This document shows positions 40,267-56,919 of a DNA stretch of 64,000 nt, piece after piece. Under the pieces are notes generated by a model. It had not been told where the DNA came from. It did not search any database and saw only the letters and a program-made list of their open reading frames with translations. The position numbers were made by a program, and so were the translations under genes. How positions within the stretch are numbered: the stretch's first letter is position 1; each line of letters opens with the position of its first letter. This DNA comes from Actinomycetota bacterium (GTDB lineage: Bacteria > Actinomycetota > Acidimicrobiia > Acidimicrobiales > JAMCPL01), in assembly GCA_023379675.1 (NCBI GenBank), contig JAMCPL010000010.1, forward strand, positions 51,021 to 115,020. Reading direction: 5' to 3'.

Positions 40267-40845
40267 ATGATGCGGAAACACGTGACAATCGATAATCTTT
40301 CTGGTAAGGAGAGCATGGAGTCAGGAGGGAGGCCGGATCGCGGCCCAGGCATGCTCGAGACCGGTTCGGTCCTAGGCGGCGCTAGCGGTAGCGCTGCGAG
40401 TAGCGACACAGGCGGCGGCGGTGATGATCAGCCACCTGCCACAGAGACGGTAGGCCAGCCTGCCAAGGTCATGAGGATCGGGATGATGGTCAGGCAGTTG
40501 CTGGAAGAGGTACGCCAGGCACCGCTCGACGAAGCCAGCAGGGTGCGGATGAAGGAGATATATGAGACCTCTGTCGCTGAGCTGGCTGGAGCTCTGAGTC
40601 CCGAGCTCTCCGAGGAACTTGATCGCCTGTCCATACCTTTCGAGGGGACCGCACCCTCGGAGGCTGAGCTTCGGGTGGCTCAGGCTCAGCTTGTGGGGTG
40701 GCTGGAAGGGCTCTTTCATGGCATCCAGGCCACGCTGGTAGCCCAGCAGATGGCCGCCAGGGCTCAGCTGGAGGAGATGCGGAGCCGGGAGCTGCCCTCT
40801 GGCATGCAGGACACCGTTGCGCATAGACCGGGCACCTATCTCTGA
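40267..40845 (+). CDS. bpa: Bacterial proteasome activator Bpa/PafE-like (DUF2587)
   Basis: AKVMRIGMMVRQLLEEVR..LDEASR.R..EIYETS..EL...LSPEL..EL..L.....PSEAELR.AQAQLVGWLEGLFHGIQ with a C-terminal ..PGTYL* (compare the GQYL 20S-docking motif). The start is uncertain (ORF track 40186). Confidence 0.75.
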   Translation: MMRKHVTIDNLSGKESMESGGRPDRGPGMLETGSVLGGASGSAASSDTGGGGDDQPPATETVGQPAKVMRIGMMVRQLLEEVRQAPLDEASRVRMKEIYETSVAELAGALSPELSEELDRLSIPFEGTAPSEAELRVAQAQLVGWLEGLFHGIQATLVAQQMAARAQLEEMRSRELPSGMQDTVAHRPGTYL

Positions 40846-40896
40846 TCTTTCGCTATCTCTGATCTTTCGCTATCTCTGACCTTTCCCTATCTCGAG
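40837..40896 (+). repeat. 17-nt tandem repeat x3.5 (TATCTCTGATCTTTCGC) beginning inside the last bpa codons
   Basis: Units lie at 40837-40853, 40854-40870 and 40871-40887 (2 mismatches), with a partial unit at 40888-40896. The first unit contains TAT CTC TGA, which encodes Y-L-stop of bpa. Confidence 0.9.
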
Positions 40897-40938: not shown

Positions 40939-41047
40939 ACACGATCTGTTTTGTAGCTTCAAGAGCCATTGCGCCGGTGAAATTGTTTGATGAGGTGGGT
41001 CGCATATACTACACGATCCGTTTTGTAGCTTCAAGAGCCATTGCGCC
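40939..41047. repeat. Repeat-spacer-repeat unit 1: 37-nt direct repeat x2 (1 mismatch) with a 35-nt spacer
   Basis: ACACGATC[T/C]GTTTTGTAGCTTCAAGAGCCATTGCGCC occurs at 40939-40975 and 41011-41047. The spacer is GGTGAAATTGTTTGATGAGGTGGGTCGCATATACT. Confidence 0.9.
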
Positions 41048-41188
41048 AGGTGCATCGTGTCGCTTGACGACCGAGGATGCGTCGGGACGTGGGTTGTGCT
41101 AATGATTGTAACCATAGGCCGCGACCACCGGCGAACCGGCTCCGTGGTCTGCATGGCGCACCACTACTAGTGATAGAGGAGGTCCATA

Positions 41189-45696: not shown

Positions 45697-45805
45697 GTCG
45701 TGCCAGTGTGTGTTTCCACGGGTGCCAGAAGCCTGCGTTCCTGAGGTTGCTCTGTTCACCGAATCGGTGTCGTGCCAGTGTGTGTTTCCACGGGTGCCAG
45801 AAGCC
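45697..45805. repeat. Repeat-spacer-repeat unit 2: perfect 37-nt direct repeat x2 with a 35-nt spacer
   Basis: GTCGTGCCAGTGTGTGTTTCCACGGGTGCCAGAAGCC occurs at 45697-45733 and 45769-45805. The spacer is TGCGTTCCTGAGGTTGCTCTGTTCACCGAATCGGT. Confidence 0.92.
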
Positions 45806-49486: not shown

Positions 49487-52195
49487 TTACGCAGATGGCT
49501 GCCCACCATCGTTTTCCTGGGCTGGGGCAATCCCGTAATGCCTCCATGTGGATGAGCGTGAGGGCAGATCATCCGCTTGTGGCTCCGGGCTGTAGGTTGC
49601 CTGCCCGTGCGATGCCCGGTCGGATGCTTGGCTGCGGAATGTATCGACCATCTTGAGCATGGCATGCACATCCACAGGCTTGGTCATGTACCTGCAAGCA
49701 CCCTGGCTGATCAGGCGTTCCAGGCTGCCTGGCGTCGCGTCGGCAGACACAATGACCACCGGTGTGCCTGAGAGGTCGCCTCCAGCAGTGATCTCACGTA
49801 GCACGTCCTCGCCGGACATATCTTCGAGATGCAAATCGAGAAGGATCAGATCAGGATGGTACTGGCGAGCGATATCGATTCCCAGCCTCCCGAGCGCCGC
49901 AGGGATGAGCCTGATCGAAGGTCGCTTGGAGAGTATCTCTTCCATGAGCCTTGCGCTTGCAACGTTATCCTCTATGTACAACACAGTGAAGAGCCGCTCG
50001 GCCTCGCTACCCGTTGCTGCGGATTCCGGGCTACCTGCAGGTTGCATTTCGGTGCCCGCGTTTCCGGAGTCGAGGACGGCATCCGCTGCCTGCGAACCGC
50101 TGGTAATTCCTGCTTCCATGGGGTCGCCGGCAGGATTTTCGTTCGAACCTGCAGAGGCGGTACTCTCGTTCACGGACACCTCCACGCAAAATGTACTTCC
50201 CTTGGCGGGCTCGCTGGTGACCGTGATGGTACCTCCCATCGCCTCCACGAGCCTTCTGGTGAGGGCAAGGCCAATCCCCGTACCAGGTATCGATGTGCTG
50301 TCCGCGCTCAGCCTGGTAAATGGCGTGAATATGGCTTCCAGCGCATTGGCCGGGATGCCCCTTCCGGTATCGACTACGGATATCCTGACGGTACGTCCCC
50401 TATCGCATTGCTGTTGCTCCAGATTGACCATGACGCTTCCTCCTTTTATGTTGTATTTGATGGCGTTGTCCAGAAGGTTCAGCAGCACCTGCATCAGCCG
50501 CTGGCTGTCTGCCTTTACGGCCAGGTAATTTCCCACATCGTTACGATTGAACGCCAGTGAAACATTACTGGTGAATGCCAGCGGGGAGATGATGTCCATT
50601 GCTTCACGAATACTTGGCACTACCATGACCGGTTCGATGGAAAGGCTGAGGCGTCCGGCTTCGACGCGTGCGAGATCAAGCACTTCGTTGATCAGCGATA
50701 GCAGGTGCTTACCGCCTTTTTCGATCTGGACGACATATTCGCGGATCTGATCGGGAATCTCGTCCATCTTGATAAGTTGGCTGAAGCCGAGGATGGAGTT
50801 CAGCGGGGTGCGGAGTTCATGACTCATCCTGGACAGGAACTCCGACTTTGCCTGGTTTGCTTTGTCCGCTTCCTGCTTTGCCGATTTGAGCTCATCTTCT
50901 TTCGTCACCTGATCTGATATGTCCCGCGCGGCGGTGACCGTGCCGACGACCCTGCCGTCCTTGCTGGTCAGCGGCCTGCACCGTATCTCGTAGGTTTTGA
51001 CTTCCCCAGTTTTCCCACGTGCCCGAACCCTCATAGGTAAGGACGCGGTGCGCGGCGAGGCAATGGTGGTCGCTTGCAGTTCGAGTGAGGGCCGGCGGTC
51101 CTCCGGCAGGACATGTTGGAAGTTGCACATCAGCTCTCTTGCCCTATCCATAGTGATACCAAGTGAGCGTTCCACCTCCGGGCTTACCCTGATCACCTTG
51201 CCGGCCGTATCCCTCAGGGTGATGATGTCGGGGACGGCCTCGAATATGGAACTTATGAGGCGCTCACGGTCAAGGATTTCGTCCCTCTGGTCGCGCAAGC
51301 TCTTTTCCCGGTGGCGAAGCTCCTGCGAGGCTTCCTTCAACCCAGCGGCGATTTGCCCGATCTCGTCCTTGCCAACGGGTAGGTCCGTCAGCTCCTCTCC
51401 CTTGTGCAGGCGGAGAGACGCCATCTCAATTGCTGTCAATCTCTTGGACACTCCCGATGATATTATCAGCATTACCACTACGCCGCCTATGATGGCTATC
51501 AGCACAGCGGCAAGGGACACAGATCCACCGGCATCGTGCCGCGCCGCCAGCGTTGCCTTTGCATTTGACATTATGCCGTTCTCATTACTGATGAAGCGCC
51601 TGACCGTGGATTCTGCCGACGTTATCCCTCCAAACACTCCTGCAAGTAGGTGTCGTACCGGGCCAGGTAGGGATACCGATGAATGGCTGGATCCTGTGGA
51701 GGGTCCTGTGGAGCCGCTCAGCGAGGCTACATCGGAGGTAAGCGCGGCCAGCTTGGACAGTACGGATGACAATTGCCCAGAGAGGGCGCCTGCCATGGCA
51801 ATTGCTCTGGGGTGGTGATCAGACAAGGATTGGAGATTTCTTACGTTGGCTGTGATGTCGATGCGTTCAGCGCGGATGTCCGCGAGGGCCGCCATGACGG
51901 TCTGGCGACCAGTGGTGGCGTGAGGCGTACTCCCAAGAGGCTGGGCCAGCTTTACCAGTATCTGTCCCAGATCCGATTCGGCGTCATGAGCCTCATTCTC
52001 GGCCCTGATCGTGTTGTCGTAAGCCGATTGTGCACTTGCGATGGACGGATTGACTGCGAAGCCAGCCAATGCCAGATAGCCGACGAGTATGAGCAATGGC
52101 ACTCCAACCACCACGCTGGCCTTGTACTTTATCTTGAGATCCCGTGTCAGCCGGGAAGGAGCGAAAGGGAACTTGCGGCCTGACGAACTGGTCAT
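49487..52195 (-). CDS. Hybrid sensor histidine kinase/response regulator (TM-sensor, HAMP, PAS, HisKA, HATPase, REC)
   Basis: H-box FLSRMSHELRTPLNSILGF, N-box LLNLLDNAIKY, G-boxes DTGRGIP and GTGIGLAL, and a C-terminal receiver (VLYIEDN..DLILLDLHLEDMSG..TKP) are present. Confidence 0.9.
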   Translation of the reverse strand: MTSSSGRKFPFAPSRLTRDLKIKYKASVVVGVPLLILVGYLALAGFAVNPSIASAQSAYDNTIRAENEAHDAESDLGQILVKLAQPLGSTPHATTGRQTVMAALADIRAERIDITANVRNLQSLSDHHPRAIAMAGALSGQLSSVLSKLAALTSDVASLSGSTGPSTGSSHSSVSLPGPVRHLLAGVFGGITSAESTVRRFISNENGIMSNAKATLAARHDAGGSVSLAAVLIAIIGGVVVMLIISSGVSKRLTAIEMASLRLHKGEELTDLPVGKDEIGQIAAGLKEASQELRHREKSLRDQRDEILDRERLISSIFEAVPDIITLRDTAGKVIRVSPEVERSLGITMDRARELMCNFQHVLPEDRRPSLELQATTIASPRTASLPMRVRARGKTGEVKTYEIRCRPLTSKDGRVVGTVTAARDISDQVTKEDELKSAKQEADKANQAKSEFLSRMSHELRTPLNSILGFSQLIKMDEIPDQIREYVVQIEKGGKHLLSLINEVLDLARVEAGRLSLSIEPVMVVPSIREAMDIISPLAFTSNVSLAFNRNDVGNYLAVKADSQRLMQVLLNLLDNAIKYNIKGGSVMVNLEQQQCDRGRTVRISVVDTGRGIPANALEAIFTPFTRLSADSTSIPGTGIGLALTRRLVEAMGGTITVTSEPAKGSTFCVEVSVNESTASAGSNENPAGDPMEAGITSGSQAADAVLDSGNAGTEMQPAGSPESAATGSEAERLFTVLYIEDNVASARLMEEILSKRPSIRLIPAALGRLGIDIARQYHPDLILLDLHLEDMSGEDVLREITAGGDLSGTPVVIVSADATPGSLERLISQGACRYMTKPVDVHAMLKMVDTFRSQASDRASHGQATYSPEPQADDLPSRSSTWRHYGIAPAQENDGGQPSA

Positions 52196-52387: not shown

Positions 52388-52499
52388 GAAGTGGCGGTCT
52401 ACACGGGTTCGACACCTTCAGGCCCCAAAGGGTCTAACGGGAATCTTGGACCAATCGACTCATGAAGTGGCGGTCTACACGGGTTCGACACCTTCAGGC
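52388..52499. repeat. Repeat-spacer-repeat unit 3: perfect 36-nt direct repeat x2 with a 40-nt spacer; one copy covers the LysR stop codon
   Basis: GAAGTGGCGGTCTACACGGGTTCGACACCTTCAGGC occurs at 52388-52423 and 52464-52499. The spacer is CCCAAAGGGTCTAACGGGAATCTTGGACCAATCGACTCAT. Confidence 0.92.
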
Positions 52500-53398
52500 A
52501 TAGGTTGCCCATGTTTGGCTGTTCTCGTCACTTCTTGCAGTGAGGCGATTGCCGCCTTGGCCGATGCCGACGGTATGCTCCGCGATCGGCGGGCTATCCC
52601 GACTTCACGAGTGGCTATGCCGTCTACCTTTACCAGCCTGACGCGATCTTTTAGATGGAATGGGACCGCACTGGTGGGCAACAGGGCAAATCCGTTACCG
52701 TCGAAGGCGAGCGATGCTATCAGGCGTATCCCGTCCAACTCGGCGGCAGCCTTTAGACTGACACCGTGAGACATTGCCGCCTGGTCCAGTTCGTTACGGA
52801 ATGTGGTTCCAGGCGCTGGCAGCAGCAGTTCGAGGTGGGCCAGATCGGCCATCTGGATTGAGTCCATGCCCGGAACTGGATCCGCGTCACGCGGTACCAC
52901 GAGGTTGATTTCTTCTGTGAAGAGGGGGGTGGCGGTCAACTCCTTGCTGGTTACCGGGAGCGTCATGACAGCAAAGTCCAGCCTACCTGTAATCAGGAGC
53001 TGGCTGAGGGTGTTACTGGTTCCGTCATGTATCACCAAACGAATGGCAGGGTGAGCCCGTTTCAGGGTGGCATGCAGCCTTGGCGTGATCCATCGTGCCG
53101 TGGTACCTATCATGCCGATCCGTACGGTACCGGACAGTTCTGCCTTCAGCGCGCCTATGTCGTCCCATATGGCTTCCATCTCTCCGAGCATCCTGTACGC
53201 GCGGGCGGCAACCGCTTCACCTTCTGGGGTGAGATCCGACGTCGATCTATCGATGAGTACCGTCCCAAGCTCGTTCTCCAGCTTTGTCACGTGTGCTGAG
53301 ATATTTGATTGGACTGTTCCAAGCAAGTCCGCTGCGCTGGAAAAGGAACCTTTTTCATGTACCGCCAGTAGGGCTCGTAGCTGTTTTATATCCATCAC
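52475..53398 (-). CDS. LysR family transcriptional regulator
   Basis: MDIKQLRALLAVHEKGSFSSAADLLGTVQSNISAHVTKLENELG HTH followed by a LysR substrate-binding domain. Confidence 0.92.
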   Translation of the reverse strand: MMDIKQLRALLAVHEKGSFSSAADLLGTVQSNISAHVTKLENELGTVLIDRSTSDLTPEGEAVAARAYRMLGEMEAIWDDIGALKAELSGTVRIGMIGTTARWITPRLHATLKRAHPAIRLVIHDGTSNTLSQLLITGRLDFAVMTLPVTSKELTATPLFTEEINLVVPRDADPVPGMDSIQMADLAHLELLLPAPGTTFRNELDQAAMSHGVSLKAAAELDGIRLIASLAFDGNGFALLPTSAVPFHLKDRVRLVKVDGIATREVGIARRSRSIPSASAKAAIASLQEVTRTAKHGQPMPEGVEPV

Positions 53399-53670
53399 TT
53401 ATTATGATATCAAGTATCTATAGTAGCTGCTTGACAGATTGAGGCATAAGGTACATAATATTTACATAGATAGCAGGAGCTGGATACCCCCTCTCCGTTT
53501 CCTGGCTATACAGATGGAGAAGTCGAGCGCCCCCCCTTGGCTTCTCCATCGCTATTTTGGCGGAGATCTACTTTCCATACTGTACAGCGCTAGCGGTTTC
53601 ACCGCGTATGCCGCACATGCCGGTCGTCGGGTGTGTCATTATTTGTAGGATAAAATAGTTTAGCTATAAT

Positions 53671-55490: not shown

Positions 55491-56579
55491 ATGTTCGGAG
55501 TACCCAGTACGGGAAATGTCACAAGTATGGTGGATTTGGAGGCGCTACTTGGTGCGGATGCCGAGGACCTGCTGAGCCATACCTGCAAGGGTATTCCTAA
55601 AGAGATGCTGGAGTTGCCAGGGCCGGATTACCTGGACAGAGTGATGTCGGTCAGTGACCGTAACGCAACCGTCCTACGCAATCTGGGCACGCTCTATTCG
55701 CATGGCAACCTTGGAGGGACGGGATACTTGTCCATTCTCCCGGTGGATCAGGGCATCGAGCACTCAGCTGCAGCGAGCTTTTCAAAGAATCCCGCGTATT
55801 TCGATCCGTTCAAACTCTGCGAGCTGGCCGTGGAAGGGGGTTGCTCCGGTATCGCAACCACCCTAGGAGTGCTTGGCATGACTGCGAGGAAGTATGTCCA
55901 CAAGATACCATTTATAGTCAAGCTCAACCACAATGATCTGCTCGTCTACCCCAACCGGTACGATCAGATCATGTTCGCGTCGGTTCGTCAGGCCGCGGAT
56001 CTGGGTGCGGTGGGTGTCGGTGCTACGATATACTTTGGGTCGGAGGAGTCCTCGCGGCAGCTACAGGAGGTGTCAAGTGCGTTTGCCGAGGCTCATAGGA
56101 TGGGAATGTTTACCGTGCTGTGGTGCTACCTACGTAACAACGCGTTCAAGACGCCGGACGCGGATTACCATGTCGCAGCCGATCTCACCGGGCAGGCCAA
56201 TCACATTGGTGTGACCTTGGAGGCAGATCTGATAAAACAGAAACAGCCTGAGCTGAACGGTGGCTATACGGCGTTGCACTTCGGCAAGACCGATCCTCTT
56301 GTATACGATACCCTTGCCACGGATCATCCCGTGGATCTTACCCGTTGGCAGGTGGTCAACTGCTATTCAGGTCGTATCGGGCTGATCAATTCCGGTGGTG
56401 AGTCAAAGGGGGACACTGATCTGGCACAGGCCGTGCGAACAGCTGTCATTAACAAGCGAGCCGGTGGGACCGGGCTCATTGTAGGGCGGAAATCCTTCCA
56501 GCGTCCCATGGATGAAGGAGTGAAGCTGCTCCACGCCATCCAGGGTGTCTTTGCTGACTCCCGGATCACCATAGCCTGA
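55491..56579 (+). CDS. fbaB: Class I fructose-bisphosphate aldolase (FbaB/DhnA type)
   Basis: It is close to the E. coli FbaB pattern ([17 protein letters not shown]...[47 protein letters not shown]). The start is taken at the ATG at 55491, 8 nt after GGAGGA. Confidence 0.88.
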
Positions 56580-56595
56580 CGTACTTCGGTCTGCT

Positions 56596-56711
56596 GCGGC
56601 CATTATGCCGCAGCCCGGTGTCTTTACCAGCACGCGGGCACGCCGGTCGTGAGCGCTACAATGCGATGTAATTAGGCGGCCATTATGCCGCAGCCCGGTG
56701 TCTTTACCAGC
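56596..56711. repeat. Repeat-spacer-repeat unit 4: perfect 36-nt direct repeat x2 with a 44-nt spacer; each copy carries a hairpin
   Basis: GCGGCCATTATGCCGCAGCCCGGTGTCTTTACCAGC occurs at 56596-56631 and 56676-56711. GCGGC-CATTAT-GCCGC forms a stem-loop. The first copy starts 17 nt after the fbaB stop. Confidence 0.92.
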
Positions 56712-56919
56712 TATCGGATCACCATAGTGTAGCGCGTAGAAAGCGTTAAGAAACCAGCTATTCGCGCTAACAACGCGTTAAAAGGCTTCCATTCCGGTAG
56801 CTACACGTGTATAACGGTGCATATGGTACTGATTGACGGATGCAGGCTATGACCTGGCCCGAGATATTACGGATAGTTCATGAGCTGCGGCATGGCGGCC
56901 GCAGCGGATCTGGAGAGTC

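Follow-up and report, generated by a model that had tools for sequence, protein, structure and literature searches.

A probable off-target spacer integration with a 36-bp target-site duplication at the 3' end of a LysR-family gene in an Actinomycetota bacterium

We describe a repeat-insert-repeat unit, designated U3, in a 64,000-nt stretch of the chromosome of an Actinomycetota bacterium (contig JAMCPL010000010.1 of assembly GCA_023379675.1, positions 51,021 to 115,020; the whole stretch is referred to below as the window). The unit lies at the 3' end of a gene for a LysR-family regulator and is an insertion with a 36-bp target-site duplication. We consider it probable that U3 resulted from off-target spacer integration by an integrase of the Cas1-Cas2 type with a 36-bp ruler, i.e., from integration outside any CRISPR array, a "neo-CRISPR" event. 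The observations reported here concern the anatomy of the insertion, the empty sites, the donors of the inserts, the fixed 36-bp length of the duplication, a bias in its border bases and the polymorphism of the unit in the population. The type of the enzyme and a native repeat of 36 bp are what these observations would suggest.

The 36-mer GAAGTGGCGGTCTACACGGGTTCGACACCTTCAGGC occurs in the window exactly twice, at 52388-52423 and 52464-52499; the copies are 100% identical and 40 nt lie between them, precisely as the earlier note on this DNA had it. A match of this type was found in none of 100 dinucleotide-preserving shuffles of the window. The sequence of the copy at 52464-52499, taken on the minus strand, is G CCT GAA GGT GTC GAA CCC GTG TAG plus 11 nt; it thus comprises one base of the preceding Met codon, seven full codons (PEGVEPV), the stop codon and 11 nt further. 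The earlier description of this copy as the last eight codons and the stop of the LysR gene holds for the stop and the 11 nt beyond it, and the codon count has to be reduced to seven. The other copy was correctly placed in the intergenic region between the LysR gene and a histidine kinase gene, which is on the same strand. The LysR open reading frame (ORF) contains the Pfam domains PF00126 and PF03466 and has a GTG start one codon upstream of the called ATG. The gap between the LysR and kinase genes is 279 nt in the filled form and 203-204 nt in the empty one. The target duplication runs across the stop codon and preserves the LysR reading frame as a by-product.

An exact match to the LysR protein is encoded by seven public contigs; two of these, from metagenome-assembled genomes (MAGs), are identical to the window. 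In the contigs L003-L005, which come from other samples of the same mine-tailings study, the flanks are 100% identical to those in the window, the 36-mer is present once, and there is no insert. These three are k = 31 contigs, and the read-level evidence throughout this report comes from Logan contigs, not from raw reads. The assembler breaks k-1 = 30 nt into filled repeats, as in L003 at another unit of the window, U2, and in L006, from a U3-filled sample, at U3 itself. Contigs thus stop 30 nt into a filled repeat, and the assembler does not collapse the unit. Across eight runs, the empty joint of U3 ("skips 76") was observed in four (X3-X6) and the filled form in the four others. A sister lineage, about 91% identical in nucleotide sequence and with its genes in the same order, has a single 36-mer at the U3 site, and its sites corresponding to two other units of the window, U1 and U4, are empty as well. 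The single copy without an insert that the earlier note proposed to look for in related genomes is thus present both in strain-identical contigs and in the sister lineage. Its proposal of a staggered-cut insertion that spans the stop codon and leaves the ORF intact agrees with the empty sites with identical flanks, with the sister lineage and with a donor located elsewhere.

The first 36 of the 40 bases of the U3 insert were found in a second context with unrelated flanks in all eight runs, even in those with an empty host site. Among species-representative genomes, a scan gave 100% matches at L007:1891-1926 and L008:536-571, two contigs of the MAG Actinomycetota bacterium FK_Sedi_A_Bin.95, a different Actinomycetota genome that co-occurs with the window organism. 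The matches lie in a segment of about 470 nt that is present at two contig ends (L007:1730-2200 and L008:376-845) with 93% identity and encodes the C-terminal TNB domain of TnpB (PF07282; 60.9 bits in L008 and 31.3 bits in L007 at a cut-off of 26.3). The L007 match is partial (profile positions 38-60 of 60), and this copy may be a decayed fragment. Both copies of the insertion sequence (IS) are at contig ends and show its 3' part, with the full-length tnpB and tnpA outside the view. The protospacer of U3 is about 60 nt beyond the TNB domain. The donor IS family is multi-copy, with many sequence variants in all runs, and its sharp right end (L007:2200) joins many different flanks. The depth of the U3 donor tracks the Bin.95-type organism (about 1-2.4 copies per genome) and not the window organism, whose abundance varies independently; the G+C contents of the two are 51% and 57%, respectively. 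The comparison of the insert with mobile and phage DNA, also suggested earlier, was therefore productive for mobile elements, with the IS donor found in a MAG, and not for phages: exact matches of the U3, U1, U2 and U4 inserts in a collection of viral contigs numbered zero each, and the U3 region gave chance 40-nt matches only against GenBank phages. When the contigs of the runs were aligned to the donor IS in search of canonical arrays with spacers from it, U3 was the only case among the loose ends listed.

U3 is one of five repeat-insert-repeat units in the window, U0-U4 (Table 1); the repeat search revealed four near-perfect ones, and U0 is older and decayed. The unit finder returned no comparable units in two series of 50 and 30 shuffled windows. 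Each unit has its own, different repeat built from the local sequence, which implies that nothing was brought in but the insert. All five are found between 35 nt before and 94 nt after the 3' end of a gene; this placement may reflect either tolerance of insertions or a preference for such targets. U1 is 94 nt past the stop codon of Bpa, and U2 is 15 nt past the stop codon of a 230-aa gene, between convergent genes. U4 is nested in U0, and its target covers both the insert and copy B of U0; after subtraction of the 80 nt of U4, the period of U0 is 73 nt. The region between the proteasome-activator gene and U1 also contains a 17-nt tandem repeat, CTATCTCTGATCTTTCG, in 3.4 copies (40836-40893), of which the sister lineage has about one copy.

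Donors could be traced for some of these units. The U1 insert (40976-41011) has exactly 36 nt in common with an AT-rich context of another replicon, and by this measure U1 is really 36 + 36. A reconstructed 96-nt U1 donor had no match among plasmids, and neither the U1 insert nor the flank of the U0 donor had matches among metagenome contigs of the Joint Genome Institute (JGI). The U0 insert matches a high-copy family of hairpins of about 30 nt that is found elsewhere in metagenomes. For U2 and U4 no donors were found. The flanks of the four known protospacers, in any orientation, had no common 3-nt protospacer-adjacent motif, as judged by eye in this very small sample.

Several observations concern the hairpin family itself. 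Its core of about 30 nt, GGTCTGCTGCGGCCATTATGCCGCAGCCCG, at 56588-56617 has a perfect 8-bp stem, and in run X7 the family reaches about 27 times the host depth. It is represented there by many 31-mer unitigs that branch on both sides and by one longer context with the flanks GTAGTCAAAACCCATCACAGGTATTT and TGCACTGGACCGTGCACTGGACCGTGTAGT. It could be an element similar to repetitive extragenic palindromes or the end of an IS. We considered the family as a candidate native CRISPR repeat and rejected it: the core is about 30 nt rather than 36, and the two flanks in the single longer context differ.

Table 1. Coordinates of U3, of the adjacent genes and of the other repeat-insert-repeat units (positions in the window unless a contig is given)
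Feature	Position	Strand	Repeat or size	Insert or remark
U3 repeat copy 1	52388..52423		36 nt	LysR-to-kinase intergenic region; one half of the target-site duplication
U3 insert, donor-identical part	52424..52459		36 nt	3' region of the tnpB insertion sequence, with tnpB antisense to the + strand of the window
U3 insert, last 4 nt	52460..52463		4 nt	TCAT; the donor copies seen continue with CGGC instead
U3 repeat copy 2	52464..52499		36 nt	minus strand: last 7 LysR codons, stop and 11 nt
LysR-family regulator gene	52475..53395	-	306 aa	3' end is the integration target
Hybrid histidine kinase gene	49487..52195	-		downstream of U3, same strand as LysR
U1	40939-40975 / 41011-41047		37-nt (36/37) duplication, 1 mismatch	insert 35 nt (35/36)
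U2	45697-45733 / 45769-45805		perfect 37-nt (36/37) duplication	insert 35 nt
U4	56596-56631 / 56676-56711		perfect 36-nt duplication	insert 44 nt
U0 copy A	56544..56581		old duplication	last codons and stop of a DeoC-family aldolase gene
U0 insert	56582..56616		about 35-37 nt	contains the hairpin GCTGCGGCcattatGCCGCAGC
U0 copy B	56617-56631 + 56712-56734			split by U4; diverged from copy A in the window lineage
L8c	L008:6593-6694		perfect 36-nt duplication	30-nt insert
L8b	L008		36-nt duplication, 4 mismatches	35-nt insert, a copy (29/30) of yceI 520 nt away on the same strand
L8a	L008		73-nt period	more decayed

Units of the same kind are present in the donor organism and in the sister lineage. 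The chromosomal contig L008 of Bin.95 (about 8 kb with aroK, aroC, ogt, yceI and a gene for an ATP-grasp ligase) holds three of them, L8a, L8b and L8c. L8c is in frame inside the gene for the ATP-grasp / L-amino-acid ligase, between the ATP-grasp and C-terminal domains, and adds 66 nt (22 codons); it is polymorphic, with an empty form (depth about 12) alongside the filled one in run X2. In the sister lineage, U0 is present as an exact 38-nt repeat with a period of 73 nt and an insert that is the same but for 5 of 37 positions. U0 is consequently older than the split of the lineages, and it drifts at an approximately neutral rate. Decay is also seen in other old units, with 6 of 36 differences in U1s and 4 of 36 in L8b, where U1s and U2s designate units that the sister lineage has of its own. 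The U1s target, which is an empty single copy in the window (41038..41073), has 8 nt in common with the U1 target. Of the three sister loci that cover the U2 site, L025 carries U2s, at the same target as U2 and with an unrelated insert, and L026 and L027 are empty. Three intergenic spots were thus each hit twice independently (U0/U4, U1/U1s and U2/U2s). Overall, 10-11 events are seen in three lineages, with duplications of 36-38 nt and inserts of 30-44 nt; the duplication is 36 in U3, U4, L8b and L8c, 36/37 in U1 and U2, and 36-38 in U0 and U1s.

The loci L025 (16490-16720) and L026 (16490-16640) encode identical kinase proteins, and the 77-nt unit U2s is the difference between them. In L026, the single copy consists of the 5' part of the first L025 repeat and the 3' part of the second, the pattern that would be expected if a unit had been lost by recombination between its repeats.

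The border bases of the targets show a bias. Four of the six well-defined targets start with G and end with C against a background of 8.2% (P ~6e-4 in a post hoc test), and G occupies 10 of the 12 presumed attack positions (P ~1e-4, also post hoc). In vitro, Cas1-Cas2 of Pyrococcus furiosus performs full-site integration at non-CRISPR sites where G/C are one repeat length apart, and G is strongly preferred (PMC6698737). Over-produced Cas1-Cas2 in Escherichia coli is reported to place spacers elsewhere in the genome with a duplication of repeat length, and these can spawn "neo-CRISPR" arrays (Nivala 2018, via PMC7054753; bioRxiv 10.1101/148544). The latter source calls the natural evidence for off-target integration, from two other species, circumstantial (bioRxiv 10.1101/148544). 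A local duplication of fixed length, a short variable fragment of mobile or self DNA, and G at the attack positions together constitute the signature of full-site integration by Cas1-Cas2.

We presume the following course of events. An integrase of the Cas1-Cas2 kind would capture about 36 bp of DNA from the 3' part of the tnpB IS of a co-resident actinobacterium, and both 3' ends of the fragment would be joined to the two chromosome strands at points 36 bp apart, each beside a G. Gap repair would then copy the 36 bp between the cuts and thereby produce the repeat-insert-repeat structure. The upstream copy would retain the native gene junction, and LysR would still end in ...PEGVEPV-stop. The unit would persist as a largely neutral scar until it is lost by recombination between the repeats, which leaves a perfect empty site, or decays by mutation. 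In the loci seen, the same process would have occurred about ten times, spread over three lineages, with a few intergenic spots hit more than once. Nothing in U3 points to a function, and it is probably a neutral scar; an effect of the longer LysR-kinase gap (+76 nt) on kinase expression is conceivable.

A number of points weigh against off-target integration by Cas1-Cas2. Neither cas1/cas2 nor a canonical array with 36-nt repeats is present in the window, its flanks, or the sister and donor loci, about 100 kb of multi-Mb genomes; an absence on this scale would say little. The density of about one unit per 10-17 kb seen (five in about 80 kb of the window organism and three in about 11 kb of the donor organism) is far above what is expected for rare off-target events. 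The test of the G...C borders was made post hoc. An orientation-free search of the six targets gave C-2, G1, T11, G35 and C36 as the only shared positions, which is not significant overall, and revealed no common internal motif beyond the border bases (p = 0.31). Known off-target integration sites tend to resemble the native repeat; the sites described here look as if the border bases and a ruler of 36 bp defined them, and not a strong internal motif. TCAT, the last four bases of the U3 insert, is absent from the donor copies seen, and the simplest guess is that it comes from an unsampled variant of the IS. Finally, the strain in run X7, with a LysR gene that is about 3% diverged, is also U3-filled. 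When the two repeats recombine, a perfect empty site is restored, and some empty alleles in the window strain may therefore be secondary losses, or the filled allele may have moved between strains. The direction of change, i.e., insertion, rests on the donor match and the sister lineage and not on strain phylogeny.

The same observations admit a second reading, to which we assign a clearly lower though appreciable probability: an adaptation-type integrase, lacking a preferred leader-proximal array from the start or after its loss, would routinely write one-spacer units at dispersed chromosomal hot spots. Such an enzyme would place units mostly at the 3' ends of genes and sometimes in frame inside genes, and in a stronger version of this proposal it may not be a Cas1 at all. 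If this were true, there would be perhaps hundreds of scattered records of IS elements, foreign replicons and self DNA, and the process would be a significant, so far unrecognised origin of indels and of changed gene ends, and would supply material from which new CRISPR arrays could form.

A further proposal, which we regard as rather improbable, is that the integrase or repair pathway is unrelated to CRISPR, cuts 36 bp apart and captures fragments of about 36 nt, so that the scattered units are its main product and the system is of a new kind. It would accommodate the lack of cas genes and a canonical array in the loci examined, the high density with re-use of the same spots, the targets without a common repeat-like motif, and the insert ends that in some cases do not match the donor. 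On the other hand, all measurable features (the length of the duplication, variable inserts of spacer size, attack at G, and mobile or self donors) fit the chemistry of Cas1-Cas2; we know of no other enzyme family that yields 36-bp duplications; and the absence of cas genes from about 100 kb of multi-Mb genomes carries little weight.

Replication slippage, template switching or end joining with filler DNA is very unlikely to explain the units. The L8b insert, whose source is on the same strand at a distance of only 520 nt, might be accounted for in this way, and Actinobacteria possess Ku/LigD end joining. These processes would not give a 36-bp duplication together with an insert of about 36 nt ten times, and they leave the inserts from other replicons and the G...C borders unexplained.

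The units might also be regarded as mini-CRISPR arrays that function with one spacer, or as regulatory RNAs, with transcripts that serve a Cas effector, given their repeat-spacer-repeat anatomy, the match of the U3 spacer to a mobile element and the persistence of some units (U0) across about 9% sequence divergence. We believe this to be still harder to accept. The local repeats differ and some are coding, so no single Cas6 or effector that recognises a repeat could process them all; old units decay at an approximately neutral rate; and one unit is in frame inside a gene. A scan of U3 gave neither a promoter nor a terminator consensus, and its RNA fold is not unusual (z = +0.95). Rfam families are absent from the window at the gathering threshold (no dedicated tRNA scan was made) and from the donor loci at E <= 1, and the RNA-seq runs of the same study contain no sequence from the locus.

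The direct repeat around a foreign insert at the end of a gene also resembles the scar of a transposon or an integrative element, i.e., an attachment-site (att) or target duplication left after excision, and the earlier note had mentioned att-site duplication. This is most improbable. No integrase or transposase is encoded nearby, the copies of U3 are separated by just 40 nt, and there is no kb-scale element. The U3 insert is an internal 36-nt fragment of an IS; in general, the inserts are mutually unrelated internal fragments of other DNA without terminal inverted repeats or shared ends. Known IS duplications are 2-14 bp long, and elements of the donor family, IS200/IS605, insert without a duplication. 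As to an assembly artefact, short repeats can confuse de Bruijn assemblers, but the recurrence of identical units in independent assemblies made with different assemblers (two MAGs at NCBI, one JGI metagenome, k141 contigs at ENA, and Logan contigs of three studies), and k = 31 graphs that behave as expected of a real repeat-insert-repeat, make it negligible.

The window is ordinary core chromosome of an Actinomycetota bacterium from mine tailings/acid drainage, with the dcw cell-division cluster, ileS, lspA, dnaE, a proteasome activator gene and kdpABC. It contains no cas genes and no multi-copy repeat array, and the same is true of the 10 kb past its right end and about 7 kb past its left end. 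The MarR-LysR intergenic region includes a hairpin with a C7 tract (53508-53558), a break point for contigs of several runs. A contig in each of four runs agrees with the window as far as 53558 and then goes on with the unrelated sequence TAAGCTGATTATATCTGCGGC..., and about 40 nt seem to be common to another locus; the sequence is present in the sister lineage at 97% identity, and a relation of the donor/insert type is possible. One contig of run X5, of low depth (6.35), connects 43215 with 44852, within or past dnaE ("skips 1636"), and could be a variant or a chimera. The coding region of ftsY in GCA_023486005.1 (L014:3221-3346) contains a 72-nt tandem duplication whose second copy is exact over 54 nt; it looks like a simple tandem repeat in frame and not like a repeat-insert-repeat unit.

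The locus bears on the origin of new CRISPR arrays and on the natural misfire rate of the spacer integrase, for which direct demonstration has so far come from E. coli with over-produced Cas1-Cas2. It presents a natural case where the empty and filled site, the donor, alleles that co-exist in one environment, decayed units and the repeated use of spots in sister lineages are found together. Such insertions can alter the ends of genes and even sit in frame, which makes spacer integration also a mutational force. The hot-spot sequences are ready substrates for a study of what an integrase with a 36-bp ruler recognises. There is also a trap for annotation: CRISPR finders may report the units as very small arrays, and duplicated gene ends may be treated wrongly by gene callers.

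Off-target integration by Cas1-Cas2 is already known as a kind of event; unusual here are the number and density of events, the re-use of sites in sister lineages, the in-frame hit in a gene and the complete natural record. A canonical array reuses one repeat, in at least three copies, at a leader-proximal site beside cas genes; here each unit has two copies of its own sequence and a single spacer, with no cas operon or leader adjacent and with the dcw cluster, dnaE, kdpABC, LysR and the kinase as neighbours. In terms of size, the units match the type III-A direct-repeat locus of Mycobacterium tuberculosis, a member of the same phylum, with its 36-nt repeats and spacers of about 35-41 nt. Mini-CRISPR arrays or solitary repeat units on viruses and plasmids carry repeats homologous to the host CRISPR repeat and travel with the element. 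They share with the units described here the presence of one or two spacers and a location away from cas genes; in contrast, the present units are made from local chromosomal sequence, as proven by the empty sites. With in vitro integration by P. furiosus Cas1-Cas2 (PMC6698737) the units share attacks that are paired, fall on opposite strands at G (or C) and lie a repeat length from each other, where the border bases matter most; the spacing there is 30 bp rather than 36 bp, and the Pyrococcus sites have A-rich mid-repeat positions in common with the native repeat, whereas no internal motif shared by the six sites here was detectable. The closest counterpart is the neo-CRISPR of Nivala, Shipman & Church (2018), where a spacer-sized insert reportedly also lies outside the array within a local duplication of repeat length that is unrelated to the native repeat. 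Those events belong to E. coli over-producing Cas1-Cas2 and have a 28-bp duplication; for the units reported here we infer the enzyme, and they are natural, polymorphic in the population, 36 bp in length, numerous and recurrent at the same spots, with donors identified.

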